Part shown: positions 9,001-24,908 of the stretch, one piece after another
Position numbering within the stretch: position 1 is the stretch's first letter
Layout of the letters: each line of letters begins with the position of its first letter
Virus record (IMG/VR): IMGVR_UViG_3300044995_000369
Location: 1 to 64,000 of that record
Reading direction: 5' to 3' (one strand)
From: a virus
Length of the DNA stretch: 64,000 nucleotides
Notes under the pieces: model-generated
Told to the model about the DNA's origin: nothing
What the model saw: the letters and a program-made list of their open reading frames with translations, nothing else
Databases searched by the model: none
Made by a program: the position numbers and the translations under genes

Positions 9001-10635
9001 TGATAAAGTAGATTCTTCATTGGCTTCTAGCTTAGAAGCTTGCTCTGTATAAATGTCCATTAAATGACCAGAACCAATTTGTTCTGCTATGTGTCTTATA
9101 GCACTTTCTGAATCTACCTTATCTATAACAGAAGCCCTTTTTTCGTGGACTTGGAAAGCATCATCTATTGTGGAAAAGTAAGTAGGGTAATCTCCAAAGT
9201 TTTCGCTTACATCTGTTATCTGGCATTCTACTGTTATTGTATATGAACCACTGTTGTTTTCTAGGTTGTTTACCTGAACCCTTCTAACTGCTATGTAGAT
9301 AGGTACAGATAAATACATGTAATCCAATAGTCTTGAAAGCTCCCTGACAGAGCCTTCATCTTTAACTGTATATGTGCCGTCTGGGTTAACCAGATTTGTT
9401 ATGTCTTTAGGAAGCTTTCCAAATATCCTACTGTAAAAATCCCTATTGGAAAATATCGGCCTTGCAAATCTTGCGATGTGTATATTCCTAACAGGGACTA
9501 TAGGATCCATCCTAAACTGTGTCAGCAGGGGAGCAATAAAAGTTTCTATACCTCTAGTACTGCATGTAAATATCAAGGTTAGACCTTCATCTGGAGGTCT
9601 GTTACCCATAACCATGGACAAAAAACCCTGTCCGAGGATGGGTTTTACATCTCCATCTTTCCTTATTTCTACTATTTCTACTGGGTGAGAAGCAGCTCCT
9701 AAACCATTTATTTCTTCTTCAAATGTAGGAATACCTGACCACAATGCACCTATTTGCATTGCAGATTTTGGATATATACCAGAAACTATGCCACTTATAA
9801 TGTCCCCACTTTTTTGCCTTGGAAAGTATTGCTTTGCAAGATAAGAAAGATGTTCTCCCAAACTGGAGTTTGAGTATGTTCTATTAAAAGATTCTTTCTG
9901 CCTTTTCTTTTCTTCTATTACTTCCTTTTTCCTTTCCTCTGGAGACTTAGTAGATTTGGCTCTATTAAGTCTTGCTTCGTTGATTTGTTTTACCCTTTCT
10001 TCTAGTAGTTTTCTATTTCCTTCAAAGGTCTTGTTTAGCTGACCTATTGCTCTTGACTTGAACTCATAATAACTATACTTATCTTGCCAAAACCCTTGTT
10101 TCTTATAAGCTGCTATGATTTCTGCAGATTTCAATACTTCTGCTAGGGTTCTATCTATTTCTCCCTTGGATAGATAAACTTCGTCTAGTCTGAAGCTCTC
10201 GGTGTTGTTGTATATTACTATTCCCCTCTCTACCAATATTTCCTGTAAAGGTTTATCACCTATATAAGCTATAACATCGACGTCTCTTTCGTTGTATGCT
10301 CTTATTGCTTTGTCATCATAGTAATAACTATCTGGCATTGTCTGGAGGGATATTTTGTCTCCAGGCTTTAGAATAGTTTTTAGAGCTTCTTTAGACTCCT
10401 TGGCAAACTCTTCCAAACCAGGAGTCTTATCTACACTTTGCCCTTCTCTTAAGAAGTTCAAGTAATCCAAAACCGATACTAACTTCAAAGGTTTGTTGAA
10501 TCCTTTGACAAATATAGTTCTGGGAGAACTATACTCTTCTACTATGAATACATTGTCAGATGCTATTTTCTTCTCTATAAGAGACTTTGTCGCATCTATC
10601 TCTATAAGAGATTCTGGTGTGTTTTTTTTGGCCAT
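1..10635 (-). CDS. Giant virion/baseplate protein, >=3545 aa, partial (runs off the left edge): N-terminal degenerate SNase-like domain, tube/Dit-like domain, transmembrane hairpin, baseplate-hub-like region
   Basis: ATG at 10635 (MAKKNTPESLIEID...). The frame is open in every segment I translated, down to position 1 (...GRGPGWVLNNRMNQSTGPKE). The track lists no minus-strand ORF here, consistent with no in-frame stop. Region ~1-440 reads KPGLRMLVYLGYGN...FEV...YTIYGRGPG, resembling baseplate hub (gp27/gpD-like) proteins. Confidence 0.85.
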   Translation of the reverse strand, partial: MAKKNTPESLIEIDATKSLIEKKIASDNVFIVEEYSSPRTIFVKGFNKPLKLVSVLDYLNFLREGQSVDKTPGLEEFAKESKEALKTILKPGDKISLQTMPDSYYYDDKAIRAYNERDVDVIAYIGDKPLQEILVERGIVIYNNTESFRLDEVYLSKGEIDRTLAEVLKSAEIIAAYKKQGFWQDKYSYYEFKSRAIGQLNKTFEGNRKLLEERVKQINEARLNRAKSTKSPEERKKEVIEEKKRQKESFNRTYSNSSLGEHLSYLAKQYFPRQKSGDIISGIVSGIYPKSAMQIGALWSGIPTFEEEINGLGAASHPVEIVEIRKDGDVKPILGQGFLSMVMGNRPPDEGLTLIFTCSTRGIETFIAPLLTQFRMDPIVPVRNIHIARFARPIFSNRDFYSRIFGKLPKDITNLVNPDGTYTVKDEGSVRELSRLLDYMYLSVPIYIAVRRVQVNNLENNSGSYTITVECQITDVSENFGDYPTYFSTIDDAFQVHEKRASVIDKVDSESAIRHIAEQIGSGHLMDIYTEQASKLEANEESTLSKIEYIKSSAMPTLFPGDTEGDYKNKDNPGEVEKGSVLVGYILKENKLVEVPAEITIEEAIKQARGTYVHKYANVKNAKNKVGRFLSYKPAFGTANNWKLAKTLLGLSDLKFSDEKTMREVYRYFSLYRDIPSKIPVPISGSKRIRNGFVYKDDLTPNSQSLKSALKVEKESVLDPSYISSYTDPISGLFAVTPDNLLFSAYDYNFSNYRKEALIGTGNFPIIKPFELCSVTNSSFGEAGLSNLMEFEYGIGIGLPSVHIKPISSNKLGISILSDTYSLVGNLKEVGQSLAVFLFGPDGILPNSPISKVLLDNLKDKKNYFAELNSTFSHSISSNLSDGKGNVLTKNVDQITGTLGSLKFNSSLYKTITSVKTERGNINSAGRTIQKELINQRYEVWNQERVDHIIGSVFKKPLKFDISINTGTSIQKVNVGITNILRSQSGSLLFILEVQDKEKTILPLRTVKFQDTLVTLIADYVRAIPKGDTKVKINNVVNKSLEDIKASIRNIIQSIVSKNTKDPLLDKSTPNVLTNITQVLGVTKSKIGTKFIDESEPYVFALMYQLGRVEPGKFDMTFRIRPDRVPYVRPDFLLTDVTTMEMEIFRAEPPKEETRIEAYTRELQRNEEAVRRTSTKEGLNAEVFQLALVSMSEIDKTINPSDKNSVQAGFKNPIFVLAGIQALLLRYLDYVYSAHVVSKAGQELLQKGVRITNPEREKSGLKDVEVTNLLKNIKNDIIQNKISKIEKKFKSLSKKDPASESTNKLIEANIRSLLRIISDVDSRIADARNSKNEPFISAENIRRMVRYAQIRGLGEIFLDTRSILEDIFRIYENTINILLDPSKLRKLYTYKAGEIDLSRGDNSLATEILNLNGRLSALLNITQAIRLASGDSLDFVKRKKLTLKKPIPSIGVVEEYGISSPIKAPGKKKATYQVIGSTATTAYIQFRTNISELYISETSKLSDLVNEEEGMDAIYNMIREPSDITTIYNMMRSGRALVRDATVFTNGSTTSIRSVAGSQVIENAFRLVRRASINSAQADAASVLVGLTEPHVQIKEPLLMALGLSKFVAKTTKLSSATDTTSWKVDVFLLPYEAGYTTNRNLRKLNRAVSNETIGDIASWLNAADSLFAQRFIGIEDKALKDVISEKGRENTFDLRRAEALIRISKMATSAVFSTMVAVHAMYKAKQKILRGLEPINLVRPKDYEDVTSSFSSLSDTDVKTLAENNKVRSRNGLSELDLSPNIFASSVIYGGIGQVTNLPIGTFGEPGPLQEILNKVQLVGGIVETGAFLGSLKKEGFKIGKTVISSKALGALSNKAGNIVLQASILNSFYLGFKGDKLIETSSEKFTENIKNNINVVIPLSQDFALYALEFIQDFAFAESKGQGQAFIELIAREAESVVQNAGDVSGLGILAYTNTPVDSESAKAPTAMGYILSTYPISEAFKDLRSEEYFRTSNSENADSKLVERISILVINANAFGKSGEVSSTFMDDKWKRMYKDFYPESQGDKSFFGSYVAAFSDREGAQSPSVLKTDIDTCGEDLLSLIVDGQVAMYDTDIYSIALAPKYILADVPFYYNGIRAIWGRLKVNHFATYLLSSEYASSISMRLAPFSLATSRDKSSVGILKSMENIGISVSKFKIKKTKNHSKIKEFVNLLFKDDESVLSDLLLLSVSFPLANGRQIAFKIVNAYETYKAARRDISQKSSVKGSDSQLYSSQILEDVKRAQASLSEITRKMMEESPPEKRKLFKPAPVVYSVNSVLSIGNEGEDIGKSYVIPGSSNFPSQKVSSLVEQKTSLSNISFILDKVKESLKEQISWIIDSYTILIDGTTESDLKKADSVSVLREAILTQLSVDRALQLGISVEQAKEEYISEINRYFNFTDSNKKVPRKEAINPETLENIQRACDEIVLYSNNNLSGRDVIFSEYSQFVSTFRQLMMLKPMLYSKENALVDIFRLDDSRRFAGELIGNDTYTFSYKSKSRKSVWDKAEIDIFNSLTREVHGNGVTKRFLGLLESISLFANKVKEGNRNLKYSTLSYIDFSNDEMLRLIASVHSYFYLFYGIERPEYVPSVFYVIDYNTKTDGGNIYGLARSDISIEMLRSYSYGYSKTFWEKLNKTLYALIIGDAAPFTLGAYVNMLFFAITVVLSIKMALIAAIIVVVAIIVVGFFLMFYNAPKVDNIEITATFLSSLKAKIPFSNLSTSPLFTGMKALLEVASAISEMDLLPVSKYARSNKLLPSGIFRSNIYVYPPDISSSIQKSEFILQDTLSYLTVPLIMKRKATFATDVLSPGGHIIPSVDKVNENAKAISTTALIQESFCRDELESLPEYLAVQKAKAQGISSDKAAFDILAPNDPSDINTGYFEGFKNFLDNIQGIFIGEIKESKVAGKPAIVISSDYMQKESFELEVTAELGRLYRYLSVELIPSISSGTGTLERKLPKNRSSIANIQQVEEAFISYAGSFFDLEKYRVSEKFVYSLTGNSFWRGFEKLVGKISTFANEFPDKNDITFAYYYNIREFLKVLNSTLDFNPESKYGAENFFSAIKKLESPLLLFPLVPEASAGSTVPGTIYSRSFGRPVVIEGVKRGTDSSKFFFWGKSDIAVIRESTASARSSTRTGPEVNLNDCAFIKLQNFSFLGSSMYSGGAAIIKTKNIEGYNILSNRWNYIFASRLNKEESVNLSRNGEALIRASEVVSKFIANASSRVYMLFNLADNASHALSFIELYALKLAYEKVDDPNEAFITVTWQDIIDALTHLGCFLKFNGYVGIRAPLLEGFDNNTSVAYGRNNKPLLLKNVTSAKDLVHSSTTSAKDVNTVFAATAGLSTQFVIDKINRYLDSQSGILWENMNRFNREVKILLCSPLRLYPVAKVYFIKKGKSETILYDDLYTYADVLSVKIFESSKSPGTVAIIKLANTENKLDNIIAARSNTMSPFETRAKNEDELSGILIKPGLRMLVYLGYGNILTEEEKFLFEVETSQQEPDGTYTIYGRGPGWVLNNRMNQSTGPKE

Positions 10636-10665: not shown

Positions 10666-13600
10666 TTAGCCTATCAGGCTCTGGAAGAACATGCTGTTAT
10701 ATACAGCTTTTTCCCTTCTTTCTGCTCTGATCCTTTCCGAAACCCATGGGGGAACATAGGATACATTAGCTTGATTGTTATATTGTGCAATCATTTTTCT
10801 TGGAAGCTCAGATTCTATTTCAGGTCTTTTGTCTATATATGAATCTCTTCCTGCACCCACAGTAACGTCTGGGGCAAACGTTCCCACAGCTAGGACCCCA
10901 AGTGCTGCTATTGCTGCATTTCTATATGCATTTTTTGAGAAAAGTTCATGTACCTTTCTTGTGACTCCTATTCTGGTTTCTTTACCCTTTTTACCTCTTA
11001 TTACTGACTTTATGTATTCCAGATCCATTTTACTCAGTACATTGCTATTAGCTATTTCCTCTATAAATGCCCTGCCAAAGGAGCTTTTTGAAATACCCTC
11101 TTTGTCCATTTTTGCTACTAAATCCATTATGAAGTCTCTTTCTCCGGCGTCCTTACTAACGCTTCCCAATAGGGAGGTCATTTTTCTATATTCCACTATG
11201 AGTCCAGATTCTTTCGCTGCTTTCATCAGGTTGACAGAACTTGTGATACCAAACTTAGAGAAGTTTAGGTACGTCTGGTTCATAGCTGCAGTATCTGAGT
11301 TGAGCTTGCTTATATGGTCCAACATATAAGCAAGAGTGCCCCTAGGTGTTACAGTAGCACTACCTTTACCAGCACGTTCTCCCTCCTCGTTTGCTTTTCT
11401 CATAGTTTCCTTTGCTTCCTTTACAACTTCTAGTTTAAGTTTTCTACTCACAGATACTGCATCTTCTTTCGTTACTTTGTCCCCAAAGGTTTCCATTAAG
11501 AAGTTTACAACTCTATCTGACTTTCTACTCCTCTTACCTTCTAGTAAGTCTTCCACTGCCATTTGTTTAGCTTGTCCAAACCTCAAAAGTTCCAAGGACC
11601 CAAAACTCTTCTTACCGCCTTTTCCGAGCATCTTTTCAGCAAAACCTGACCTTTCAATTTGTATTGCTTCTCTTACTGTAGGAGTAGTCTCCAGACCCTT
11701 TGTTGTTAGTTCATTATAGAGATTCTTAATGAGAGATTCTCTTTTAACATCGTCTTCGACAGAAGCTATAGTGCTTATCCTTTGGTATAGGTTTTTAACT
11801 CCTTCTCCAGCATCCTGCCCACCTTTCTTAATACCAATCGCAATATGCTGCTCAAACATATAACCCGCAAATGAGGCAACCTCTGACATTGCCCTTCCCA
11901 TTTGTCCTAGCTTGCCTATATTGTTTTCCGCAAGAGCAGCTCCAAATGCTCTCATCATCATAGGATATTTGTAAAGTTCTCCGGTTACTGACTTTTGAGT
12001 CATAAAGACTTTGGCATCGAGTCCTCTGATTCTCGTTACCTCATCCAATAATGTTTTAGCTCCTCCTTCCACCAATTCAAAAGAAGCTTCTGGGACTCTT
12101 TTCAAAGTTTCAAGAGCTGAATCTCTAAGGTCTTTTCCTCTAAAAAGGTTATAGTTTCTATTCAAGTAGGTTTCTTCAGAACGATCCTTTACTCCGCCTC
12201 CCAGCCTATTTAATAGGTCAATTACGTAACCTTCTACATAAGCGCCTTTTAGTACTTGTCTAGATGTCAACGTACTTTCTTCCTTTTTACCACCAAGGAG
12301 TTTTACAACAAGAGAGTCTTTTTGACCTTCTACTTTCGAAGAGGTAATAGTATCTGCTTTAGTAAGTATGTAAGTTTCGGACAATATCTTTTCTCTTTCT
12401 TTTCCCTCAATATTCTTTCCATGATTATCCATTAACCAGGCATCTAACACTTCTTTTTGCTTTCTATCTAAGTAAGCAGTCAAAGACTCCCCTGGTTTAA
12501 ATTCCATTTCTCCATGTACTGCCAGTTCCCTTTTCACAGCTTTTCGAACATAGTCCTCTATCTTTTCCAGAACTATTTCCTTTGCTTTAAACTTTTCGTT
12601 AGTCAGTAGTTCTATATTTCTAGCACTATATACATTTGCTGCTTTTAATCTACCGTCGGAATAAGAAAAGCTACTGTCAGACATGAAACCAAGAACGTTT
12701 GAAGTAACTATTGATTCTTTTGGGGAGCCCCATCTTCTATCTATAATGTTGGCAACAAGCTTGCCACGGTCTCCGTCAAAGTCACGGTCAAGTACAGATT
12801 GAAACAAAGCTCCAACCTTCATGCTAGCTTGCTTTATATAAGATATCAGGTATTCTGCATTATCAATTATTCCTCCCTTTTGTAGTTTAGTAAGCTCTGT
12901 ACTTAGCACGCTTCTAATAATCACTTGTTTCATGTGCTTACTAGCCGCGATGTTAGGATCGACTCCTTGAATACCTGTAACCCCTTCTCCCAAAATACCC
13001 TTAAAAAACTTAAAAGCTTCTGTAAGTTCTTCTACCAGTCCTCTTTCTCCTCTAACACCCTTAATCTCTCTTTGAAACTCTATTATTCTCTTTCTAAACT
13101 CATATTTCAATTTCTCATTTACGGAGGAGTTTTTAATTTGATTGGCCAGTTCTATGGAGAGTTTGATCAGACTTCTTGTTTTGTTTTTAGCTAGTTTCCT
13201 TATTTCTTCATCTGACATTCCTTGTAGTCTTAGAAGTTCTTCTTCGTTGTTGAAGCTAATAAGCGACTGGAGTCTATTAGCCAACAATTCAAATCCTATA
13301 AAATCCTTTGCGATTTTGGTTTTCTTTTTTTGAAGGACTTCATTAAATTTCCCGAGCTGTCCAGGAGCTGCTTTGTTTTCCTTTATATAGGAGTTAAGAG
13401 AATTTGCATCAATTCCTGCTCTTTCTATAAGTTCAAGGACATGAAAATTCTTGCCAAATCTTTCCTCAAACTCCTTGTATAGATTGGCTATTCCTCTGCT
13501 TATTGAGGCTGGGCCAGATCCTTTTCTGCTTTCTATTACCTTTTGCTCTCTTGCTTTGAATTCTTTTTGTTCTTCTGCTGCACTTTGTAATACCCTTTTA

Positions 13601-16600
13601 AGAAGTTTTATGTTTTCGGCATCTTCTCCTGAAGCATTATCAATTGCGTCTTGGAGAGCAGAATCAATAAGAGACCAGGTATTCTTTTCGTTAAGTCTCT
13701 CCCCTATAGATTTCCAATTACTGTACAACCTACCAATATCCATCCCTTTTGTTTTATTTCTTTTCAGCATTCCTATTTCTTGGATCGCGTTATTTATGTG
13801 TTTCCACGCATTAAATACATCTGCTTTATACTTACCACTGTAGATATGAGTACTTATTTTTTTGTAAAACCCCTCCTTACTGAATAGTTTTCTAATAGCC
13901 TGTACTCCTACAGCAGATTTGTTTTGGGTTGCTTTATTAATTGACTCCCAGCTGTTGAATCCCAAATCCTGGAAATTGCCAATTGTTCTTAATATTCTCC
14001 CCAGCTGAGCGTTTACCCTTCTCGCAGATCTTGAGTACTTTCCTTTTCTTACTTCTCTTTCTGTATCATAAATACCTTCGAAGTTTTTGGCAAGAGCTCC
14101 TAAAGGAGACTTGTCCAAATCTACAAACCCCAATTCTTTTGAAATATCTTGAAGCTCTGCTTCTAGTATTGCCTTTCCTATTTTGTTTGAAGAGAAGTTT
14201 GATACTAAAAATAATGCCCTGCTCGCAGAGACCATCTTGCTATTTGCCATTGCAGTAGCTTGTTCTTTATTTATAACTACTGCATTCCACTCGAGTTCCT
14301 GTCCTGGAAAACCTCTCTGCTCAGCAATTTTAGACCACGCAGATTTAATATCATCATATCTTGAAAGGTTTAAGTTAGCAGAATAGCCAGGGTTGATCTT
14401 ATATATCTCTTGACTTTTCTTCCCAAAACCAACTTGTCGAGCTTCTTCTTCAATCATATTATTCGCAATTCTTTCTATAGAAGTGCTCAATATTTCAAGC
14501 AGCTCTCTCAATTCTGCTTTGTTTGCTTCAGAGCTCGTAGACCCTGCATTTTTGATCATCCTTGATAACTTATTTAGTATCTCTATTTGCAAATGCTTTA
14601 GGCTTCCTCCATTCATCTTTTTTACGTTAATAACTCCATCCCTTTGTAGCAGTTTTAATAACTCTATTTGTTTGGCTTGCGTCTTTTCTTTAGTTTCACC
14701 TAGCAGACCTTGACCAAGTTTTATTATGTCCAGGACATCTACTTTCTCACCTATCTCTCCTGGTTTAGGGATACTTACATAAAGCATATTAGTCTTGGGA
14801 TTTCCTACGTAATCTTCCTGAAACAGATTTAGTCTTATCGGCTCTAGTAATGGAATTCCAGTAATCTTTAAACCGCTTCCAGGTATTACTTCCTGCATGG
14901 TTCTTTCTCTTGCCTTATAGAATATTCTAAGCCTTGTTTCATCTTCTTGATCTATGTAAAAGTTATCAATACCAAGAGCTCTTATCAAAGCCTCTGCCTT
15001 AGAACCAATATCTAAACCTGCATCAATTTTCCTGTATTTCTCTAGTACTTCCGTAACTGTGAAGTCTCCCACTCTTCTTTTTTTGATCCTTTCAGACTTT
15101 AGTGCTGTATCTACAGCAGTTTCTCCTGTCACAAACGCATCTTTTGTCATATACGTGACTTCATCAAGTACTGAAAGACTATCTTTATAGACCTTTCTAC
15201 TAGCTTCTATGAGTCTTCTGGCATCCTCGTTTTGATTTTCACGAGTAGCCATGTTAATGCTTTTGTTAAAAGACAGTGCTGCCATCCTGCTCAAGTAGTT
15301 CCTTTCTATGTTCATACTCATTAGACTTGATAGGTAGGAACTCATCGCCCTGTTTATGTTGCGCATACCAGTTATTTCTATAGCGTTGAATATAGCCCCT
15401 CCCTCGTAGAAGTTGTTTCCATAAACAGGTTTCGAATGTTTTGGATAAAAATCATGACCTTGAGCTACGCCTTGTCCAAACATAATGTCTAGAAACATGG
15501 ACTTAGATGAGTTAACCTTATCTCCTGCGACCATGTTCACTACTTTGGTAACGTATGTTTTGCCTGGGGATTGGTCGTCTATGTATCCAAAAAACAGATC
15601 TTTGTTTTTGCTAGAACCAAGGTTCCTTTGCAAGAGAATTGCATTAATGTCCTCATTTACTTTTTTCATTGCTTCAATATTTTTGTCCCTAATCATTTCG
15701 AGGAACTTTACGGTAGCTTTTGTATGTCTCCAGTTTTCTAGTGCATTTGCAGTAAGTTTGAAACTTACTGTAGTTTCTCCACTGGATTTAACTCTGCTGA
15801 TTCCGAGACTAGATATGAATCTTTCTCCAGGTCTTCTATCTCTACCTAAAATAATCTTTGCGAAAAGGTCTTCTGCTGCTTCATAAAAGCTAGATCCTTT
15901 TGCCATTTGGCCGTTTATATTTATAACTGCCTGTCTTGAATCCAAATATCCGATTTGCCCTTTCATTGAATACTTGACATATTGGGAAAGATTTTTGGCA
16001 TCTGACAGTTCATTTTCTGCTAACTGAGACAATATCCTTCTGAATATGCCCTCATTCAACTGCAAGTTATATCCTTTACCAATTAGGAAGTCGCCAGATG
16101 AAACTTGATGGATATGATTCCTTTCTATAGCTTCAGCAGCTGCTCTAGCTATTCGTACTTCTGGGTCAGAAGAAACTCTTTGAGAAAAAACATGTTCAAC
16201 TAGTTCTCTAGCTCCTTGCGGAGCCATAATTTTATTAGTCGTTTTTGAGGATTCCTTTGTGACCTCCCCCAAAATATTTTTCGTATTGTAGTCTCCGGCA
16301 AATCTATATTGTACAATATTAGAGTCTCCAGTATATCTTTTTTCAAATAGCACAACGTAATGCGGAGTTTGAAGTTCCACAGAAGAACCTCTCAACTTTT
16401 CAACTCTCATATTTTCACTAACTGGAATGTCTAAAGCTTGTGCTTCTTCCCTAGTTACCAGGATCATAGGGGATCTATTCTTTTCAGCTTCTTTCAGTTT
16501 TCTTGTAATACTTTTAAATATCCTACTACCAGATTTGCTTTCTCTTCCGGATATGTACTTTATGGAATCTTCTCTTCCTCTCCTAACTCTTCTAGAAACT

Positions 16601-18696
16601 GCTTCTTCAGATGCCTTATTAAAAGTTACTGTGTGATCTGCAATATATGCTATAGAGTTAGATACCTGAATTAAATCCACGTTTGGGTTATTATATATCT
16701 CTGAAAACTTAACCCCGTATCTTCCTATAGTAATACTTTGGTCTCTTTCTACCCCTAAGACACCTGATAACTCATCTCCTATTGTAATCAGGACTCTTCT
16801 GACTCTAAAGGAAGCTTCCTCCCCTTCCATGAAGCTTCCTTTAGTAGTTGTTTTCCATTTTTGGTTTGCTATGTCGTACCTTTCCAAACCCGGCACCATT
16901 CTATATTTGGCGAGGATCTTTTTTATTCTTTCTTTCCCCCTCTTGATACTTTGAAACCTGGGGTTGAATCTAGTCTCTTGGTCAGTTTCCATACTTTCTG
17001 CTCTGCTTTTGGCAGAACTTAACCTCATTCTGATTTTCCTAAGCCTGTCCGCCATGATTTTTCTTTCTTCGTAATAAGAAACTCTCGCACCAGTATGGAT
17101 AGCTCTTTTAACTGCAGAGTTAATGTTGAAGCCAAGAGCAAGATTAGTTCTTAGTGCTTGCTGACCTTGTGCATGTCCTCCCGCAAAAGCCACCCCACTA
17201 GGAACCGCTACTGTTTTTGCACTTTCTGCAGCTCCGGTTGATCCTGCTAATGTGGTCCTTGATTCTATATCGTATAGCTCTAGTTCCCTTCCATCAATTA
17301 GAAGATACATGGGGTTTTCAGTTATAGAAGAAAGGTACTTGAGGTTGAGTTCTCTTATTATATCTTTTACCGATTTGGATCCTCTTTTGCCAAGATCAGA
17401 TATTCCTTTTTGTTTGATATAATCCATGAGCGCAGCTTTCTCTGGATCCTCCGCCATTAGCTTAGGTCTCTCCAAAATAACGGATCCAGGAAAGAGCTCT
17501 TGTTCATGACTCTTTTCTATCACTTCAAATGCTTCTTCATCAAATTGCAGATTCCTGATAGTAGAGACAATAGTGTTAATAAGTGACAAGTTGTCTTTCT
17601 TACCTGGAACTCTTTGAAGCCTTTGTACTTGAGCAGTCAAAGCTCTTATTGTTCCATCAAATCTTCCACCTTCTCCGAAAACAGTCTGACTTGGCAATAT
17701 TAGGATGTTCTTTTTTCCTTCTACTCTATACTTCACTTTGGAGACTCTTGTTTGTCCATCAATTCTAAAAGTGTTGTGAGCTATAAACGAAGAGAAAAGT
17801 TTGCCATCGAATCTGTTTTCAGAAAATCCGGCAAGCTCTATCTGCTTGCGTATCATGTCATCACCATAAAAGGCAGGCAATTCCACTTCGAACTTTGCAT
17901 TCCCATAACCACTGGGAAGAGTTATTTCATACCTGTACATCCCAGGAGATCCTTTGTAAACTTTTATATTTTCAAACTCTCGAGGATTGGAGTCTATGTT
18001 ATCTATGTTTACGCCGAAGCTGTTTTTTAGGAACTTTGCTAAGATCCTAAATGCTTTTTGTCCTGAACTTGTTAGATCTTTTACTTCAAGCCTGCTTTTC
18101 ATGGAATCAACTATGTGTCTCTGTTCTGCAATAATCTTTGCTGCTTCTAGTCTTCTTACAGACTCTGCAAATGACTCTCCAGATTCTGCAGACCTAAGCC
18201 ATTCCCACTCTTGGTCTCTTGTATACATTTCTCTGTACTGAGCAACTTTTCTGTCATCCTTACTAACATAGACAGTATAAGGCTTTTCGTTTATGTCTTG
18301 AACAAGAGTCCTTATTCTTCTTTCTAATTCTTCTCTTCTTCTAGCTATATCTTCATGATCTGCATCTACAGAAGACTCTTCTGCCCTCAGTTCCTCTAAT
18401 TCTTTTGCGTAATTATAGAATTCTTCATTTATCTTTGTTTCGTTGATAGTACTCTGTGCTCTAGGATTTCTTGAAAAGTGTGTACCTCTTCTTACATTTC
18501 TTTCGTAATTTCTGATCCTATACAAAGCATTTCTTCTTTTGTCTGCTGCCCTAGCTCTTTGTATAATCCACATAGCAGCAGGGGGTAAGCTAGTCAATAA
18601 GCCCAACTGAAATATTGATTCATTTTGATAATCTCCTTGGTTTTCTGGAGATAGGGTAGGATTGTTTAAATATATTTCTGCGTCTCTATATTTCAT
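10666..18696 (-). CDS. Putative single-subunit two-barrel RNA polymerase, likely virion-packaged (2676 aa)
   Basis: VLDRDFDGDRGKLV (DFDGD at 12769-12783) matches the beta-prime NADFDGD metal-binding loop. VVLFEKRYTGDSNIVQYRFAGDYNTKNILGEV (~16261-16362) parallels the beta [28 protein letters not shown] motif. The gene is coupled to the tape measure gene by an ATGA overlap. Confidence 0.7.
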   Translation of the reverse strand: MKYRDAEIYLNNPTLSPENQGDYQNESIFQLGLLTSLPPAAMWIIQRARAADKRRNALYRIRNYERNVRRGTHFSRNPRAQSTINETKINEEFYNYAKELEELRAEESSVDADHEDIARRREELERRIRTLVQDINEKPYTVYVSKDDRKVAQYREMYTRDQEWEWLRSAESGESFAESVRRLEAAKIIAEQRHIVDSMKSRLEVKDLTSSGQKAFRILAKFLKNSFGVNIDNIDSNPREFENIKVYKGSPGMYRYEITLPSGYGNAKFEVELPAFYGDDMIRKQIELAGFSENRFDGKLFSSFIAHNTFRIDGQTRVSKVKYRVEGKKNILILPSQTVFGEGGRFDGTIRALTAQVQRLQRVPGKKDNLSLINTIVSTIRNLQFDEEAFEVIEKSHEQELFPGSVILERPKLMAEDPEKAALMDYIKQKGISDLGKRGSKSVKDIIRELNLKYLSSITENPMYLLIDGRELELYDIESRTTLAGSTGAAESAKTVAVPSGVAFAGGHAQGQQALRTNLALGFNINSAVKRAIHTGARVSYYEERKIMADRLRKIRMRLSSAKSRAESMETDQETRFNPRFQSIKRGKERIKKILAKYRMVPGLERYDIANQKWKTTTKGSFMEGEEASFRVRRVLITIGDELSGVLGVERDQSITIGRYGVKFSEIYNNPNVDLIQVSNSIAYIADHTVTFNKASEEAVSRRVRRGREDSIKYISGRESKSGSRIFKSITRKLKEAEKNRSPMILVTREEAQALDIPVSENMRVEKLRGSSVELQTPHYVVLFEKRYTGDSNIVQYRFAGDYNTKNILGEVTKESSKTTNKIMAPQGARELVEHVFSQRVSSDPEVRIARAAAEAIERNHIHQVSSGDFLIGKGYNLQLNEGIFRRILSQLAENELSDAKNLSQYVKYSMKGQIGYLDSRQAVININGQMAKGSSFYEAAEDLFAKIILGRDRRPGERFISSLGISRVKSSGETTVSFKLTANALENWRHTKATVKFLEMIRDKNIEAMKKVNEDINAILLQRNLGSSKNKDLFFGYIDDQSPGKTYVTKVVNMVAGDKVNSSKSMFLDIMFGQGVAQGHDFYPKHSKPVYGNNFYEGGAIFNAIEITGMRNINRAMSSYLSSLMSMNIERNYLSRMAALSFNKSINMATRENQNEDARRLIEASRKVYKDSLSVLDEVTYMTKDAFVTGETAVDTALKSERIKKRRVGDFTVTEVLEKYRKIDAGLDIGSKAEALIRALGIDNFYIDQEDETRLRIFYKARERTMQEVIPGSGLKITGIPLLEPIRLNLFQEDYVGNPKTNMLYVSIPKPGEIGEKVDVLDIIKLGQGLLGETKEKTQAKQIELLKLLQRDGVINVKKMNGGSLKHLQIEILNKLSRMIKNAGSTSSEANKAELRELLEILSTSIERIANNMIEEEARQVGFGKKSQEIYKINPGYSANLNLSRYDDIKSAWSKIAEQRGFPGQELEWNAVVINKEQATAMANSKMVSASRALFLVSNFSSNKIGKAILEAELQDISKELGFVDLDKSPLGALAKNFEGIYDTEREVRKGKYSRSARRVNAQLGRILRTIGNFQDLGFNSWESINKATQNKSAVGVQAIRKLFSKEGFYKKISTHIYSGKYKADVFNAWKHINNAIQEIGMLKRNKTKGMDIGRLYSNWKSIGERLNEKNTWSLIDSALQDAIDNASGEDAENIKLLKRVLQSAAEEQKEFKAREQKVIESRKGSGPASISRGIANLYKEFEERFGKNFHVLELIERAGIDANSLNSYIKENKAAPGQLGKFNEVLQKKKTKIAKDFIGFELLANRLQSLISFNNEEELLRLQGMSDEEIRKLAKNKTRSLIKLSIELANQIKNSSVNEKLKYEFRKRIIEFQREIKGVRGERGLVEELTEAFKFFKGILGEGVTGIQGVDPNIAASKHMKQVIIRSVLSTELTKLQKGGIIDNAEYLISYIKQASMKVGALFQSVLDRDFDGDRGKLVANIIDRRWGSPKESIVTSNVLGFMSDSSFSYSDGRLKAANVYSARNIELLTNEKFKAKEIVLEKIEDYVRKAVKRELAVHGEMEFKPGESLTAYLDRKQKEVLDAWLMDNHGKNIEGKEREKILSETYILTKADTITSSKVEGQKDSLVVKLLGGKKEESTLTSRQVLKGAYVEGYVIDLLNRLGGGVKDRSEETYLNRNYNLFRGKDLRDSALETLKRVPEASFELVEGGAKTLLDEVTRIRGLDAKVFMTQKSVTGELYKYPMMMRAFGAALAENNIGKLGQMGRAMSEVASFAGYMFEQHIAIGIKKGGQDAGEGVKNLYQRISTIASVEDDVKRESLIKNLYNELTTKGLETTPTVREAIQIERSGFAEKMLGKGGKKSFGSLELLRFGQAKQMAVEDLLEGKRSRKSDRVVNFLMETFGDKVTKEDAVSVSRKLKLEVVKEAKETMRKANEEGERAGKGSATVTPRGTLAYMLDHISKLNSDTAAMNQTYLNFSKFGITSSVNLMKAAKESGLIVEYRKMTSLLGSVSKDAGERDFIMDLVAKMDKEGISKSSFGRAFIEEIANSNVLSKMDLEYIKSVIRGKKGKETRIGVTRKVHELFSKNAYRNAAIAALGVLAVGTFAPDVTVGAGRDSYIDKRPEIESELPRKMIAQYNNQANVSYVPPWVSERIRAERREKAVYNSMFFQSLIG

Positions 18697-21600
18697 AGTC
18701 TGACAACCGATCCAAATTTAGGTATGAATCCTGGGTATCCTGGGTCTTCATCTAGCGTAGGAATATCCATACCTCTAACATTCTCCATATACTTTACCCT
18801 ATTAACTTGCTGGGTCCAACCAAGACCGAGTTCATGAGCATCCAAACCTCTGGTTTGGAGAGTTTTGTAGATTATGTCATCCGATCTGAACCGAAGAGGA
18901 GCTCCTTCTACTACTCTTCTGGCATCTGTTATATACTTCTGGTATATGCTAGTATCGGGGACTTCGCCTGTAGCATATGATAAAAATAGACCTCTGGTAT
19001 GAGCTGGCAAGAGAGGGGCTATTTTTTCTATATCCTCCTTGTGCATATTTAGCATCATTCTTCTGACATAAGACCTTTCAGCAGGGGATAGAGAACCAGT
19101 AACATCGTTAAAACCTGCTACTTCTCCCAGATATGCCCCTTCAGTATAAGCATAGTAAGCGGAGGATTTCTTTCTTAATGTGAATCTCCTATCTCTAGCT
19201 TCGTATTCATCTGCCAGCTCTGTTGCCTCTTTGTACTTCAGAGCGTCGGCAAGAGCCTGTACATCATCAAGTTCTTGCATCCTGCTGGCTCTTGTATTAC
19301 TAGTTAGACCAAGCAAACTAGCAGCCCCTGCAATCCCTGCACCAAGGCCAGCTCCAATAGGACCTCCAAATATAAATCCTCCTGTTGCTCCAGACACAGT
19401 TGCTTGAAGAGGATCTTCTTCTGCTGCTATCAAGCTTATGTTTGCAGCAATGTAGTCTTCTATCGGATTTTGCCACCTAGTAAATCCTTTACCTAATGCA
19501 ATATCTTCTCTGTACTGTTCATACATAGATTTCTTACCCATCAATTTATTGAGTATGGGATTCCTAAAGTGTGTAATGTATTCTCCAACCGCTCCAATCA
19601 ACTGTTCTGGTTTCGAGTACTTTTCTGCTTCCTCTCTGAGTTTTATCGCTTCTGTTCCCATGGGGGTTTTACCCATTAACAAAGGAATAAACTTATATTC
19701 TTGAGTTTTTCGAGATTTGAGTCTTTTGATAAATTGATCCATGATATTCCTGTACATTGCCATCTCTTTGTTTCCCAAAATACCAGCACCAATTTGCTGG
19801 TGTACAATCTTCATTTCAAGCTGGGTCTCTTTTGAGAAAGGAGCAACATTTACAAGTATTTGGAGTCTATTTAGATGAGAATATGCGGGCCATCTGTTAA
19901 CGGAGTACCCTTCTTCTTGAATATCTTTAGTTATTTTGCTGGCTTGCCTTGCTGCTGACTTTGCCAGCTTCACATCATTCAGATACTTTTTCAAGTCTGC
20001 ATATATAATTTGTTTACTTATATTCCCATCTTTATCCATGGCTATAAGTAAACCCTGCTTGATATCTTTTGTGTTGTTTACCAAGTATGCATTAAGTTGA
20101 GCAACTCCTCCAGGGTCCACGTAATTATCTATTATTGGAACAACTGCAATTGCTGTTTTCAAACCCTTTTCATCCTGCATTACTGCATCTACAAAAGAGT
20201 GCACGTCATTTTTCACATCATATGCTACATCTGATTCTTTAATAATCGGCATTGTTTTTTTGAGTTCTCCAATAAGCTCTTTTCTTGTTCTTTCTACAAC
20301 ATGCCAGTTTCTCCTAAGAGATGCTAAGTAAGTTACGTCTCCTGCATAAAAACTGACTTGTTCCTCAAATGACTTTCCCATTACCATTGAGTCTATAGGA
20401 TATGTATAATAAACGTCGTGGGTTGCTTCATATGCTTTCCCAGGAAGTCTAACCTCTCCCATTTGGATTTTGTTGTAAGGATCTCCTGTAAGAAAGTCTA
20501 TAAAGGAGTCTTTCCCAGGTAGCCATAGTGGCATAGCGTTAGCTATCCTGTTGACTCTTTCTGTGTCACCAGGAGAAGGATTTGGGAATATACGACGAAT
20601 TCCCTCACTTAATCCAACAATACCTCCAAGTTCCTTTTCCCAATAAGCTTTGCTAAAACTTGCTATATCATTTGCAGATTCTATTCTGAAACCACCACTG
20701 AAACCGGTAGGACCTCTATCTGTGGCCATATCTATAACATTACCCAATACAAATCCACGAAGGCCAGCAACATCTAGCATGTTATCTATTGTTGTGTCTG
20801 TAGCAGCTCCAATACTGTCGGGACTTATGATCGGAAGAGAGGAGATGGAACGCCCTCCTACTATTTCTCCTCCGTAAAAAGCTCCCCTTCCGCTCGATAT
20901 AGGAGTTATTGAGTTAAGTGTTCCAGAGTATTGGAGACCTGGTACTGCTCCACCAGCTAGTAATGCACTTTGACTCATTTCTTGAAGAAAGTCTTGGTGC
21001 ATATACCTACTCCCCCCAACAAGTGAATTTAGTGCGGTACCAATAAGAGGAAGGTTGCTAAATTTCCCTCCTACCATTTCATATGGGCGACTAATGTAAT
21101 GTTTTTCAGCATATACTCCAGGGTCTATGTAAGACTGAACCACATCAACTAGATCATTCCCGATATAGTTATCTGCTCTTTGATACTGTTTCTTTTGTAG
21201 GGCATACAAGGAAGGTCTAAAGTAAGTTATCTTATCTCCCCAAAATGCAGAACCGGAAAGCTCCCAAAACCTGCCCTTAGATACAGCAACTTCTTTTTCT
21301 CCGCTAAGTTCTGCTATTACTTGTTCTCTGCCTTTTGCTAAATTCCAACTATCGTCAAAGAGTCCAAGAGGACCTCCCCCCAAAATCATACCTATACCAG
21401 CACCTATCATACCTCCTTTTATAGGACCAACCCTACCCATATTACCAATTTTCAGGCCCATTCCTATTGGTAATAACCCTCTTATTAAACCAGATAGAGG
21501 AGAGTCTATTGAACCAGGGACTAATTCCTCCATTTTTTGAGCGAATGATGTTATTCCTGTAAAATCACTCACTGTTTGGGAAAGAACTCTTGCTCCAGCA

Positions 21601-24600
21601 TAAGCATCCCACAATATACCAGTTACACCCCCAGCCAAGCTAGTTTCTTTCAGTAAGGGAGTTTGTTGTATAAGACTAGTTACTAGATCGTGTGCACCAA
21701 ATAGTAACCCTACAGGAAGAACCCTTTTTGCAAGAGTCTTTGTAATAATATCAGAGACTGTAAAAGTATTTTGTAAATCAAACCCTAGTCCAAGTATACT
21801 TAGAGCAGAGTTCATAGTTCCCACAGCTGCCAAGTGCTCTATTTCTCTTCTATTTATTGGTACTTCTCTAACATCTACCTCTGTCCCTTTCAGAATAAGG
21901 TTTGATTTTCTTACCCCCATTTTTTTGGATGTATCATCGAACACCAGAACAATTTTATTTTCTGCTCCTGGTGCTTCCTTAATTCTCTTTTTAGATCCAA
22001 ACGTACTTATTGCTTCTCTAAGATTTGCCCTTCCTGAACCCAAGAAAGTACCAGATAAAAACTCTATAGACTCGGCTAATTCTGATCGAGTCAGTGCATC
22101 AACGCTTTCTCCCGGAACATATTTGTTTCCAACTGTCAGCATGTGTATTGCTGCAGATATACCGTTCATATTGGTTTCACCTAGTCTAAGCTTTGCAGAA
22201 GAAACTCTACCTGCTCCATAAGAGGACACTTCCGATAGGACTCTCGCAACCGAGTCCCTGGTAAACCTATCAGAGCTTGAGATGCTTAGGAGAAAATCAA
22301 ATATTTCCTTATTGTGTTTGTCTATTCTGTCTCCGTGCCCTTTAAGACTTGCGGATAAAGCTGAGGCTCTTGTTCTATCTTTGCTGCTTAGTACAAGTTC
22401 TTGCAGTTGCCTAAGGGGTGATTCGTCAAATCCATGAACTTCTTTCAGGTAGCCTTCATGACGAGAAAAGAATTCATTGGTGTACTTTATCTTGTTTAGA
22501 ACATCTATTAGGCCGTCTTTTTCATCTATAACTGCTTTCCTAATATCAAAGGCCCCAAGGACTGCTCTATCTTGAGCACTTATTCTGTTTGATTTTGCTA
22601 TCACATCAAATACTTTTAATAACATACCAGTCATACTTTTAGAAGGATCTACAGCACCTTCTGCCATATCTGCTGCCCTCATGGAGGCAAAAATGCCGTT
22701 AATTATTTTTTTGGAGTAACTGTTTATCCCTTTTACTATTTCAACAGCTTCAGTGTCTCCTTTCCTTAATATGTCTTCTAACTTTTCTCTGTTCAAAGCT
22801 CCTCTTTTTAAGTCTCCAACTACTTTCCCAATGTAGGAAGGATCTTTGTACTTTCCAAAGATAGATCTCACTTTTCCGAACAAAGATTGCTCGTGACCAC
22901 TATTCCACTCTAAGAAGTCCCCTAATGTTGTAACAAACTTTGTAAAGCCAGTATTTTCAGAGTCCCTATAATACCTTTTCATCTTTATATTGGTTGTAGT
23001 TTCAATACCGCTTTCTATTTCAACTCCACTTGGGCCAGTTATAGAAGCTTTACCTCCAAGTAATCCGCCCGCGATCTGTCCAGCTCTGGTATCTCCTCTG
23101 AGAAGCTTTGCTCCTTCTATAGGAGCATCTCCGGCATGCAGTATGAAAGTTACTTTGTTTCCATCTGCCAATTTGGTATGGACTTTCACGTATCTTCCAA
23201 GAACATCCAAAATGTCTCCACTTCCGAGGTCCCACTGACCTCTAGTCATTACTCCGAATGCTATTTTATCTGCTACGAACTCTTTTACTGCTTCTTCGTC
23301 CCCTTTATCAGCACCAAATGCTCCCCATTTGCCAGTTATTCTTGCGTATTCTATTGCTTTCTCTTGTTTGGCTTTTAGATAGCTTTCTGCAACTGACTCC
23401 TCTGCCTTAGTCATTATTTGTATCGCTCTTTTCGCAGCAGAGACTTTGCTTCCGCTCTTGTTATATTCTTCTACTAACTTTTCATCATTTCTTGCAAAAG
23501 TGTAAAGCTCAAGAGTCCTACCACCTTGAAGACCAACGACTCCCTTCCCTGGCTGAATACCATGTGTAAGTGCCTTAGTCTTAGCTGATTGCAGCCAGTG
23601 GTTACCTGCATCCAGAAAGTTTAACCAAGGCCTGTTAGCGATATTAAGAAATTGAGTAACTATTTTATCCATAGCATCTCTTATAGAATCTATATGAAAG
23701 ACTCCTATGTCATATCTTCCTCCTAGGAAATCTATTTTTGCTCTATCCTGAGTTACTTGTCTTACTACATCCGTAGTTATGATTTCAAGATTTTCAGACC
23801 TTTGGACTGGTGACTTCCTGATAACTTTAGTTCCCATATAGCCTATGTCATCTCCATAATACTTTGCACCGGCTAACTTACGAAGTCCTCTATGGACTTC
23901 TGCGAACTTCTTGTTGAATCCTACTCTCTCCAGTTCTCTCCCCTCTCCAGTTGCAATATCCCTATATAACAACTGGCCTTTTACAGTCCTCCTACCAGAT
24001 TCTTTTTTAACAGAAGAGACTGGAGCTCTTTCATCTCCCATCAAAGTTGCGTAAGAATCGTACAAAGAAGTTTTATCTTTGAACTCTGCATCTTTTACTT
24101 TCGCATCCACTATGGACAAATCTGATCTTCTTGCTTTTCTTGCGTTCACTTGTTGAACTGATCTACCTATCGCTTTGAGTGCGGCAGTAGTAGATCCAAA
24201 CGCTTTAAAAGTCTGGTTTGCAGAGACAAATTTGGACATTGCATTATCGTAAACAGCAAACATTCCCTTTGTCATTTTGTTTAGATTATGCAAACTTTCT
24301 GCACCAAGTTTTGCTAAGGCTTCCAAACCGAACACAGAGGATTTCTTAGAAAATGTAGCTATTCTAGCCATTTTCAATGAGCGTTTGGCAACATCAAATC
24401 CAGCACTAAACCCCAAAGACAAAGGCAAACCAGTAGTGGCATAATAGTTAAGAAAGTTTTGATCTGCAGGGATGTTTCCTTGTATTTGTTCTACCTTGTA
24501 CATTACATATGTCATTGGTAGAAACTTAACTTCCCCTTTTATCGCTCCTTTTACTACTTGCCTTGCAAAGTTGCTGCGACTACCTACTTTCCTTGAAATA

Positions 24601-24908
24601 GTATCTATTCTCTTTTCGTATCCTTTGATTATTTTCTTCTTGAATTTCTCCACATTCGAACTAACTTCTCTGTTTATTTCTCTGAAGTTCTCTCTGTAGT
24701 ATCTTAGGTAACTTGTCCTTAGGTCTTGGTAAGATCTGATCTTTGCGCCAGTCTTAATGACAGATAAACTTGCTCTTCCAGAGGCTTTCAGACTAGATAA
24801 AAGTTTTCCACTATTTCTGAGTGCCCAATCACCAACTTTTTGTAGACCTTCAGATAATGCGTGGCCAACAATTGGATAGGCTATAAAACTGCCAATTGTT
24901 CCCAACAT
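18693..24908 (-). CDS. Tail tape measure protein (2071 aa)
   Basis: Lies downstream of chaperone-like genes. Long helical, Gly/Ala-rich protein with hydrophobic GxxxG stretches (GGMIGAGIGMILGGG; GGPIGAGLGAGIAGAASLLG). Motifs VSKGRFWELSG..F.G.KI.YFRP and GDPY.KI..GE.RLPG..YE recall large myophage TMPs. Confidence 0.7.
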   Translation of the reverse strand: MLGTIGSFIAYPIVGHALSEGLQKVGDWALRNSGKLLSSLKASGRASLSVIKTGAKIRSYQDLRTSYLRYYRENFREINREVSSNVEKFKKKIIKGYEKRIDTISRKVGSRSNFARQVVKGAIKGEVKFLPMTYVMYKVEQIQGNIPADQNFLNYYATTGLPLSLGFSAGFDVAKRSLKMARIATFSKKSSVFGLEALAKLGAESLHNLNKMTKGMFAVYDNAMSKFVSANQTFKAFGSTTAALKAIGRSVQQVNARKARRSDLSIVDAKVKDAEFKDKTSLYDSYATLMGDERAPVSSVKKESGRRTVKGQLLYRDIATGEGRELERVGFNKKFAEVHRGLRKLAGAKYYGDDIGYMGTKVIRKSPVQRSENLEIITTDVVRQVTQDRAKIDFLGGRYDIGVFHIDSIRDAMDKIVTQFLNIANRPWLNFLDAGNHWLQSAKTKALTHGIQPGKGVVGLQGGRTLELYTFARNDEKLVEEYNKSGSKVSAAKRAIQIMTKAEESVAESYLKAKQEKAIEYARITGKWGAFGADKGDEEAVKEFVADKIAFGVMTRGQWDLGSGDILDVLGRYVKVHTKLADGNKVTFILHAGDAPIEGAKLLRGDTRAGQIAGGLLGGKASITGPSGVEIESGIETTTNIKMKRYYRDSENTGFTKFVTTLGDFLEWNSGHEQSLFGKVRSIFGKYKDPSYIGKVVGDLKRGALNREKLEDILRKGDTEAVEIVKGINSYSKKIINGIFASMRAADMAEGAVDPSKSMTGMLLKVFDVIAKSNRISAQDRAVLGAFDIRKAVIDEKDGLIDVLNKIKYTNEFFSRHEGYLKEVHGFDESPLRQLQELVLSSKDRTRASALSASLKGHGDRIDKHNKEIFDFLLSISSSDRFTRDSVARVLSEVSSYGAGRVSSAKLRLGETNMNGISAAIHMLTVGNKYVPGESVDALTRSELAESIEFLSGTFLGSGRANLREAISTFGSKKRIKEAPGAENKIVLVFDDTSKKMGVRKSNLILKGTEVDVREVPINRREIEHLAAVGTMNSALSILGLGFDLQNTFTVSDIITKTLAKRVLPVGLLFGAHDLVTSLIQQTPLLKETSLAGGVTGILWDAYAGARVLSQTVSDFTGITSFAQKMEELVPGSIDSPLSGLIRGLLPIGMGLKIGNMGRVGPIKGGMIGAGIGMILGGGPLGLFDDSWNLAKGREQVIAELSGEKEVAVSKGRFWELSGSAFWGDKITYFRPSLYALQKKQYQRADNYIGNDLVDVVQSYIDPGVYAEKHYISRPYEMVGGKFSNLPLIGTALNSLVGGSRYMHQDFLQEMSQSALLAGGAVPGLQYSGTLNSITPISSGRGAFYGGEIVGGRSISSLPIISPDSIGAATDTTIDNMLDVAGLRGFVLGNVIDMATDRGPTGFSGGFRIESANDIASFSKAYWEKELGGIVGLSEGIRRIFPNPSPGDTERVNRIANAMPLWLPGKDSFIDFLTGDPYNKIQMGEVRLPGKAYEATHDVYYTYPIDSMVMGKSFEEQVSFYAGDVTYLASLRRNWHVVERTRKELIGELKKTMPIIKESDVAYDVKNDVHSFVDAVMQDEKGLKTAIAVVPIIDNYVDPGGVAQLNAYLVNNTKDIKQGLLIAMDKDGNISKQIIYADLKKYLNDVKLAKSAARQASKITKDIQEEGYSVNRWPAYSHLNRLQILVNVAPFSKETQLEMKIVHQQIGAGILGNKEMAMYRNIMDQFIKRLKSRKTQEYKFIPLLMGKTPMGTEAIKLREEAEKYSKPEQLIGAVGEYITHFRNPILNKLMGKKSMYEQYREDIALGKGFTRWQNPIEDYIAANISLIAAEEDPLQATVSGATGGFIFGGPIGAGLGAGIAGAASLLGLTSNTRASRMQELDDVQALADALKYKEATELADEYEARDRRFTLRKKSSAYYAYTEGAYLGEVAGFNDVTGSLSPAERSYVRRMMLNMHKEDIEKIAPLLPAHTRGLFLSYATGEVPDTSIYQKYITDARRVVEGAPLRFRSDDIIYKTLQTRGLDAHELGLGWTQQVNRVKYMENVRGMDIPTLDEDPGYPGFIPKFGSVVRL

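Follow-up and report, generated by a model that had tools for sequence, protein, structure and literature searches.

Can a hot-spring phage bring an RNA polymerase of the cellular type into its host through a contractile tail, within a giant protein that resembles no known polymerase in sequence? This question is raised by the first 64 kb of a 79-kb viral contig in IMG/VR (record IMGVR_UViG_3300044995_000369, positions 1 to 64,000; hereafter the window), for which CheckV gives a completeness estimate of ~33%. DNA of the window is present in hot-spring and microbial-mat metagenomes, and there is no RNA run among the sequencing runs listed as containing it. One open reading frame (ORF) of the window, P0001 (10666..18696, minus strand), encodes a cysteine-free protein of 2,676 amino acids, uninterrupted by stop codons and with eight full-length relatives. 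A preliminary description of this DNA had proposed that P0001 is a candidate single-chain, two-barrel virion RNA polymerase in which a beta-type segment is followed by a beta-prime-type DFDGD loop. The ORF and every motif string quoted in that proposal are real and stand in the relative positions given for them, and the gap of ~1,170 codons between the beta-type and beta-prime-type segments is right.

Our own analysis makes it rather probable that P0001 is a single-chain RNA polymerase of the cellular type, from a family that is new and has diverged very far, and that a hot-spring phage with a contractile tail delivers it. Directly established are a conserved DxDxD motif, a clamp-like predicted fold, the order of these two elements along the chain, the lack of cysteine and the translational coupling of the gene to a tape-measure-like gene.

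A conserved DxDxD motif in a small protein family

The eight relatives of P0001 are full-length (2,473-2,682 amino acids), share 68, 66, 43, 40, 24, 25, 24 and 24% identity with it, and are either called 'hypothetical protein' or carry no annotation. When 1.8 billion cluster representatives were searched exhaustively with phmmer, only seven clusters came back, with nothing between E-values of 1e-65 and 1e-3, so that the family, as judged from such searches, is small and isolated. No relative was found by tblastn among 50,697 phage records or in the IMG/VR, JGI metagenome contig and GTDB genome collections that were searched, and the ESM Atlas gave no usable match for two regions of P0001. In the nine-sequence alignment, which has an effective depth of ~3, 153 of the 2,676 columns are invariant. 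The most conserved block, QK..TG.LYK.P...R, lies at residues 2231-2252 (11941..12006, minus strand). At the chain ends, conservation is best in the N-terminal 50 and C-terminal 80 residues, and the protein closes with a hydrophobic Gly/Ala-rich segment (residues 2594-2614) and a highly conserved tail (together residues 2594-2676; 10669..10917, minus strand).

The DxDxD motif itself, DFDGD in P0001 (residues 1972-1976; 12769..12783, minus strand), belongs to the string MKVGALFQSVLDRDFDGDRGKLV, which begins at residue 1959. Its conservation in homologs, on which the preliminary description had made its proposal depend, is borne out: R1971, which precedes the motif, and D1972, D1974 and D1976 (R-D-x-D-x-D, residues 1971-1976) are invariant in 9 of 9 members, down to 24% identity. 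Seven members have DFDGD itself, and DLDGD and DFDND each occur in one of the other two. D1986 and R1988, after the motif, are likewise invariant in all nine. Only 8 of the 121 Asp residues in P0001 are invariant, and three of these eight are D1972, D1974 and D1976. Given the composition of P0001, chance would supply 0.0007 exact DFDGD motifs and 0.25 DxDxD motifs of any kind per protein; across a scan of ~250,000 windows the occurrence of DFDGD alone proves little, and it is the conservation that carries the weight. Because the pattern is invariant over nine members at 24-68% identity, we take it to mark a functional metal-binding site.

Moreover, hhalign puts only the slice around DFDGD where it would be expected to fall on beta-prime or on gp96, the giant polymerase of Thermus phage P23-45. 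Its best placement is at beta-prime residues 444-489 (P 0.03-0.08), and on gp96 it is placed at residues 777-788, over 12-13 columns (P 0.03-0.14). Somewhat upstream, GIQGVDPNI begins at residue 1908; GVDPNI...KHM is a putative counterpart of NRxPxxH, and P1914, K1920 and H1921 are invariant. Two other readings of the motif were considered. An EF-hand at DRDFDGD was ruled out because position 6 is not Gly and position 12 is not Glu, and a PolD-like DNA polymerase was considered unlikely, the clamp matches described below being to RNA polymerases.

A clamp-like predicted fold ahead of the motif

An AlphaFold model of residues 560-1560, made from nine sequences, contains several alpha/beta domains (mean pLDDT 60; 403 residues at or above 70). 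Its most confident stretch, with pLDDT mostly 70-89, is residues 1145-1438 (14383..15264, minus strand), predicted to adopt a clamp-like fold of RNA polymerase largest subunits that matches E. coli beta-prime 23-343. When this model was compared by VIA-align, which is independent of Foldseek, with 48,161 representative PDB chains, nine chains reached Z of at least 5, and 9 of 9 are RNA polymerase largest subunits (Z 5.2-7.5). These are tobacco plastid beta-prime (8w9z_C, Z 7.5), Drosophila Rpb1 (9mu7_A, 7.0), an isolated archaeal clamp (3qqc_A, 6.9), the non-virion polymerase of phage AR9 (7s00_d, 6.7), Sulfolobus RpoA' (2pmz_A, 6.2), M. tuberculosis beta-prime (6edt_D, 6.1), human Pol I (7ob9_A, 6.0), the polymerase of ASFV (8q3b_A, 5.5) and S. 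pombe Pol I (7aoc_A, 5.2). In every case residues 1145-1438 (approximately 586-879 of the model) were aligned to residues ~7-350 of the subunit, its N-terminal clamp, over 128-170 residues at an rmsd of ~4-5 A.

A second look, confined to Foldseek's top 1,000 chains, gave the same family: 39 of the 40 chains with Z of at least 5 were polymerase largest subunits (Z up to 7.8), and E. coli beta-prime 23-343 was aligned over ~150 residues at an rmsd of ~4.5 A. The best unrelated match on residues 1145-1438 had Z 4.9 over 79 aligned residues. This match carries weight because the best-matching family is the one that had been predicted beforehand from an independent motif, and because the matched part of beta-prime precedes the catalytic loop, just as the clamp-like fold of P0001 is N-terminal to DFDGD.

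The proposed beta-like part and other resemblances

The segment that the preliminary description likened to the beta subunit (residues 645-830; 16207..16764, minus strand) was modelled as alpha/beta, with strands and helices at pLDDT 60-83 over residues 633-823. Its quoted strings, VDLIQVSN at residue 673, VVLFEKRYTGD at 781 and RFAGDYNTKNILGEV at 798, are present and conserved in part: a basic residue (R or K) stands at position 799 in every member, and F784, N804, K814 and K818 do not vary. However, V673, D674 and K806, the counterpart proposed for the second beta lysine, are lost in the four distant members, and the claim that the basic residues keep the same 8-residue spacing as in beta does not hold across the family. 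Fold matches of this region were weak (Z 4.5-4.6) and PAS-like or ATPase-N-domain-like, the match lists being filled by the clamp. If the segment has been read correctly, its distance of ~630 residues to the start of the catalytic region is suggestive, the corresponding path in E. coli, which runs through the last part of beta and on into beta-prime, being ~617.

Directly after the clamp-like fold lies a conserved GxGK...K..PGYSANLNL...NAVVINK block (residues 1423-1495; 14212..14430, minus strand), in which PGYSANL begins at residue 1436 and NAVVINKEQATAM at 1471, and G1425, K1433 and S1439 are invariant. By eye it resembles GKRVDYSGRSVI...GLPxxMA of beta-prime; hhalign does not place it there, so we regard it as a lead only and did not adopt the reading of PGYSANL/NAVVINK as region C of beta-prime as evidence. 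A candidate bridge helix is the invariant AIG.K.GG..A..GV block (residues 2280-2310; 11767..11859, minus strand), which stands 316 residues after DFDGD compared with 319 in E. coli beta-prime. Within it, G.KKGG.DA (2288-2296) by eye resembles GARKGGADT of Thermus beta-prime and GGKSG of the phi14:2 polymerase gp66, and a possible trigger-loop Lys was seen by eye at 2377; both are again leads only. A different candidate for the trigger loop, QK..TGELYKYPMMMRAFG, was rejected because it stands on the wrong side of the bridge-helix-like block and E2240 is not conserved. Likewise, the by-eye equation of GQGVAQGH with GGQRFGEME of beta was not adopted as evidence.

Evidence for and against a polymerase

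Several results weigh against reading P0001 as a polymerase and must be set beside the motif and the clamp. Pfam, PHROGs, NCBIfam and PDB sequences gave no relevant match for P0001, its slices or the family profile. None of the nine members matched an RNA polymerase family at E of 10 or below (curated models, including Pfam RNA_pol_Rpb1_1/2), and PF00623, which was found in 14 of 14 control genomes, had no match in six frames of the contig. Hidden Markov models (HMMs) of seven family slices scored no better than 50 shuffles each against E. coli beta, E. coli beta-prime, SPbeta YonO and phi14:2 gp66. In hhalign, the slices reached at most 1.1% against a 120-member crAss polymerase alignment (gp66 residues 1000-1700), the same as reversed queries, and against beta-prime, gp96 and YonO they stayed at the level of reversed controls, except for the DFDGD slice. 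The beta-prime profile used here (100 members, low diversity) is a poor one, because every homologue retrieved for it was at least 87% identical to the E. coli sequence. The beta-type segment found no place on E. coli beta, either in HMM searches with shuffled decoys or by hhalign, and its scores were no better than those of shuffles; nor did hhalign place the by-eye matches to the bridge helix, region C and beta.

By these comparisons P0001 fails sequence-based membership in every known family tested, namely the Pfam RNA polymerase models, gp66, gp96 and YonO. Many families of two-barrel RNA polymerase, however, show no significant similarity to one another beyond the DxDxD region (PMC10770324). 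As families share so little beyond the motif, the sequence negatives weaken membership in a known family, not the functional reading. The preliminary description had offered crAss gp66 and YonO as relatives; profile comparisons give nothing for either, and the fold match is instead to cellular-type beta-prime.

The structural evidence has its own difficulties. Foldseek found nothing significant for the 560-1560 model in the PDB and BFVD. Taken alone, the Z values of the clamp are, as the tool itself warns, within the range of chance best matches: models that match nothing usually score up to Z 7-8 as well, and a low-confidence model of residues 1400-2400 also reached 7.8. The distance from the clamp to DFDGD is ~540 residues in P0001 compared with ~120 in E. 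coli beta-prime, and therefore a helical insertion of ~410 residues (1496-1905; 12982..14211, minus strand) has to be assumed. This stretch is predicted to be helical, at low confidence, and, should the mapping onto beta-prime be right, would be an insertion specific to this lineage. Furthermore, the zinc-binding cysteines of the cellular clamp are absent from P0001.

Finally, no double-psi barrel came to light. Residues 1400-2400 were modelled (six sequences, mean pLDDT 43) as almost all helices, with pLDDT ~25 at DFDGD and the motif at a helix end, and Foldseek and VIA searches of this model yielded only helical-bundle noise (Z up to 7.8). The catalytic region failed to fold because the effective depth of the alignment is ~3. 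A complex prediction of residues 1900-2330 with 620-1110 scored 0.00. The search for two double-psi barrels that had been proposed for this protein, with AlphaFold models compared here by Foldseek and VIA-align, returned the clamp-like fold at 1145-1438 and no barrel around DFDGD. For the divergent two-barrel polymerase as first described, it is the beta-prime half that has gained support, from the invariant motif and a clamp-like predicted fold in the right order.

How do other explanations fare against these results? The one that survives best, although we think it fairly unlikely, is that P0001 is derived from or resembles an RNA polymerase but is inactive, and that it is a giant ejected or tail-internal protein (a pilot, DNA-binding or channel-forming protein) that has kept a clamp-like domain and put an acidic, metal-binding loop to some other use together with it. 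The tape-measure-like neighbour, the hydrophobic C-terminal segment, the lack of cysteine and the largely helical prediction would all suit such a protein, as would the fact that neither a barrel nor a second catalytic element could be demonstrated. However, P0001 has the exact beta-prime-type R-D-F-D-G-D, with three Asp that are invariant over deep divergence, as a catalytic site predicts, and several other nearby blocks are invariant too.

It is unlikely that P0001 has no relation to RNA polymerase at all, in which case DFDGD would be a metal site conserved for some other function and the clamp match would be a coincidence arising from a model built on a shallow alignment. Z values of 5-7.8 are indeed within the range of the best chance matches, the low-confidence second model matched unrelated helical bundles with equal Z, and the sequence-based tests were all negative apart from the motif itself. 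Against this, the family that came out best among 48,161 chains was that already expected from the motif, with the correct part matched in the correct order, and the clamp match lies ~2.5 Z units above the next unrelated match there, with approximately twice its aligned length.

We consider it quite improbable that P0001 is only a beta-prime-like half, with the beta-like barrel in another protein such as a neighbouring giant ORF and the virion polymerase assembled from several subunits, as it is in phiKZ-like phages. In favour of this, the beta-type segment could not be confirmed, and no function is assigned to the neighbours of 2,071, 2,729 and at least 3,545 amino acids. Against it, the 1,144 residues before the clamp are close to the size of a beta subunit and include confident alpha/beta domains, the protein encoded upstream resembles a tape measure, and there is no PF00623-type match elsewhere on the 79-kb contig (about one third of the genome).

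Genomic setting and signs of virion delivery

The reading of P0001 as a polymerase carried by the virion draws on where its gene lies. The ATG of P0001 overlaps the TGA of the upstream gene as ATGA. This upstream gene (18693..24908, minus strand) encodes the tape-measure-like protein, which has 2,071 amino acids, no cysteine and long Gly-rich hydrophobic segments. Gly-rich hydrophobic stretches are typical of tape-measure proteins, and the protein, which has no family match in PHROGs, Pfam or NCBIfam, is probably a tape measure or an ejection protein. P0001 lies within a structural module, following along the minus strand the genes for terminase (61861-63969), portal (57553-59205) and a tail sheath that was recognized by a weak match (46364-48808). 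Between the sheath gene and P0001 is a run of giant genes, with products of 1,069, 2,729, 609, 220, 290 and 2,071 amino acids. Downstream of P0001, after 30 nt, comes an ORF of at least 3,545 amino acids that runs off the start of the window (1-10635, minus strand); it has no family match and contains 9 Cys. Promoter-like and terminator-like sites around the P0001 gene are no commoner than in shuffled sequence.

Cysteine is absent from all 2,676 residues of P0001, from all eight relatives and from all 2,071 residues of the upstream tape-measure-like protein. Most other genes in the window encode proteins with 0.25-2.8% Cys, a few smaller ones also having none. Among known polymerases, P23-45 gp96 has no Cys in 5,002 residues and crAss gp66 has 2 in 2,180. 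Gene position, the lack of cysteine and the coupling to the tape-measure-like gene agree with packaging of the protein and its threading through the tail, and so do the conserved chain ends and the hydrophobic segment at 2594-2614. As a separate observation, giant proteins that are threaded through tails may in general be free of cysteine, and screening for such proteins could possibly make use of this.

Other genes of the contig deserve brief mention. Within the giant-gene block, the 609-amino-acid protein (26402-28231, minus strand) matches Pfam Exo_endo_phos (E 7.7e-07, the match being spread over residues 65-361) and is possibly a virion-associated nuclease or phosphatase. Next to the sheath gene are two adjacent paralogues (44176-45363 and 45453-46310, minus strand) that match PHROG 9206 'major head protein' (E 5e-17 and 1e-33); from where they lie, they look like tail tube paralogues instead of head proteins. 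A four-gene plus-strand island within the minus-strand structural module begins with the gene for a UvsX/RecA-like recombinase (39809-41971, plus strand; PHROG 97, E 1.8e-86), residues 332-506 of which are LAGLIDADG homing-endonuclease-like, an intein-like insertion. The 15 kb of the contig beyond the window encode a family B DNA polymerase (contig 73085-75850, plus strand) and a TnpB/Cas12f-like protein (contig 78226-79104, minus strand; Cas12f1-like_TNB, E 1.2e-24), and no RNA polymerase subunit was found there.

Discussion

To which known polymerase is P0001 closest? On present models the answer is P23-45 gp96 by concept and cellular beta-prime by predicted fold. Like P0001, gp96 (PMC10770324; EU100883) is a giant, cysteine-free protein of the tail module of a hot-spring phage, with a DFDGD motif and a link to the tape measure, and its delivery with or through the tail would be shared by P0001. 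However, gp96 forms one chain with the tape measure, whereas P0001 is a separate ORF that is ATGA-coupled to a tape-measure-like gene; and the gp96 phage has a long non-contractile tail, whereas the phage of P0001 has a sheath gene. The two proteins share no sequence similarity beyond ~12 columns at the motif. In gp96 the clamp connector is disordered and the C-terminal clamp region is lacking (PMC10770324); P0001, unlike gp96 as published, has a cellular-type clamp-like predicted fold.

In cellular beta-prime and Rpb1 (E. coli RpoC; 9msh_J, 4jk1_D, 8w9z_C, 3qqc_A) a clamp is followed by DFDGD, as predicted for P0001, and the fourth position of the P0001 motif is G, as in the cellular enzymes. 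There is no significant sequence or profile similarity between the two, and P0001 differs in being without the zinc-binding cysteines, in having ~420 extra residues between clamp and DFDGD, and in being a 2,676-amino-acid single chain with unrelated N- and C-terminal parts that is encoded in a phage structural module. Naturally fused beta-beta-prime forms of cellular RNA polymerase exist.

Similarly, phi14:2 gp66 (PDB 6VR4; bioRxiv 10.1101/2020.03.07.982082) and P0001 are both proteins of ~2,200-2,700 amino acids whose genes stand in a giant-gene block that follows the tail genes, with a family-conserved DFDxD motif, (nearly) no cysteine and no recognisable homologues for most of the chain. 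The virion presence that is known for gp66 would have to be supposed for P0001. Unlike P0001, gp66 is QDE-1-like, with DFDID and a bridge helix ~180 residues after the motif, and belongs to podovirus-like Crassvirales. The AR9 and phiKZ polymerases (PDB 7s00) are cellular-type enzymes of jumbo contractile-tailed phages, and the N-terminal beta-prime subunit of AR9 is among the nine clamp matches described above. However, these enzymes consist of several small subunits that are recognisable by sequence, whereas P0001 is a single giant chain that is not.

We infer the presence of both barrels, polymerase activity, packaging and injection, and a tentative outline of the protein can be drawn. P0001 would be carried in the phage particle and delivered through the contractile tail to start transcription. 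Residues ~600-1140 may form the beta-like part and residues 1145-1438 the beta-prime-like clamp. The catalytic barrel would then lie in residues 1436-2000, split by the helical insertion of ~410 residues, with DFDGD binding the catalytic Mg, and the bridge-helix-like block would follow at residue ~2290. The hydrophobic conserved C-terminus (2594-2676) may anchor P0001 to the tape-measure or ejection machinery. Whether all of this holds together is, in our judgement, evenly balanced: that P0001 stands for an undescribed, deep-branching family of single-chain polymerases in which a beta part, a clamp and a beta-prime catalytic part are joined in one cysteine-free chain of 2,676 amino acids, made as its own protein yet coupled to the tape measure, and that hot-spring jumbo-like phages inject it through a contractile tail.

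Phages with an RNA polymerase of their own are independent of host transcription and resistant to its inhibitors. To our knowledge, few systems of phage-carried polymerase have been proven, these being the T7-like N4 vRNAP, phiKZ/AR9, crAss gp66 and P23-45 gp96. If the polymerase reading of P0001 is true, tail-delivered transcription extends beyond one group of Thermus siphoviruses and the Crassvirales. For the study of very divergent giant virion proteins, it may be that structure prediction recovers the clamp more easily than the catalytic barrels. If P0001 is active, it would add a polymerase family that no annotation tool recognises. A contractile tail would then be known to let through, as a threaded chain, the core of a cellular-type polymerase together with its clamp, and studies of how two-barrel polymerases evolved would gain a new and very distant point of comparison.

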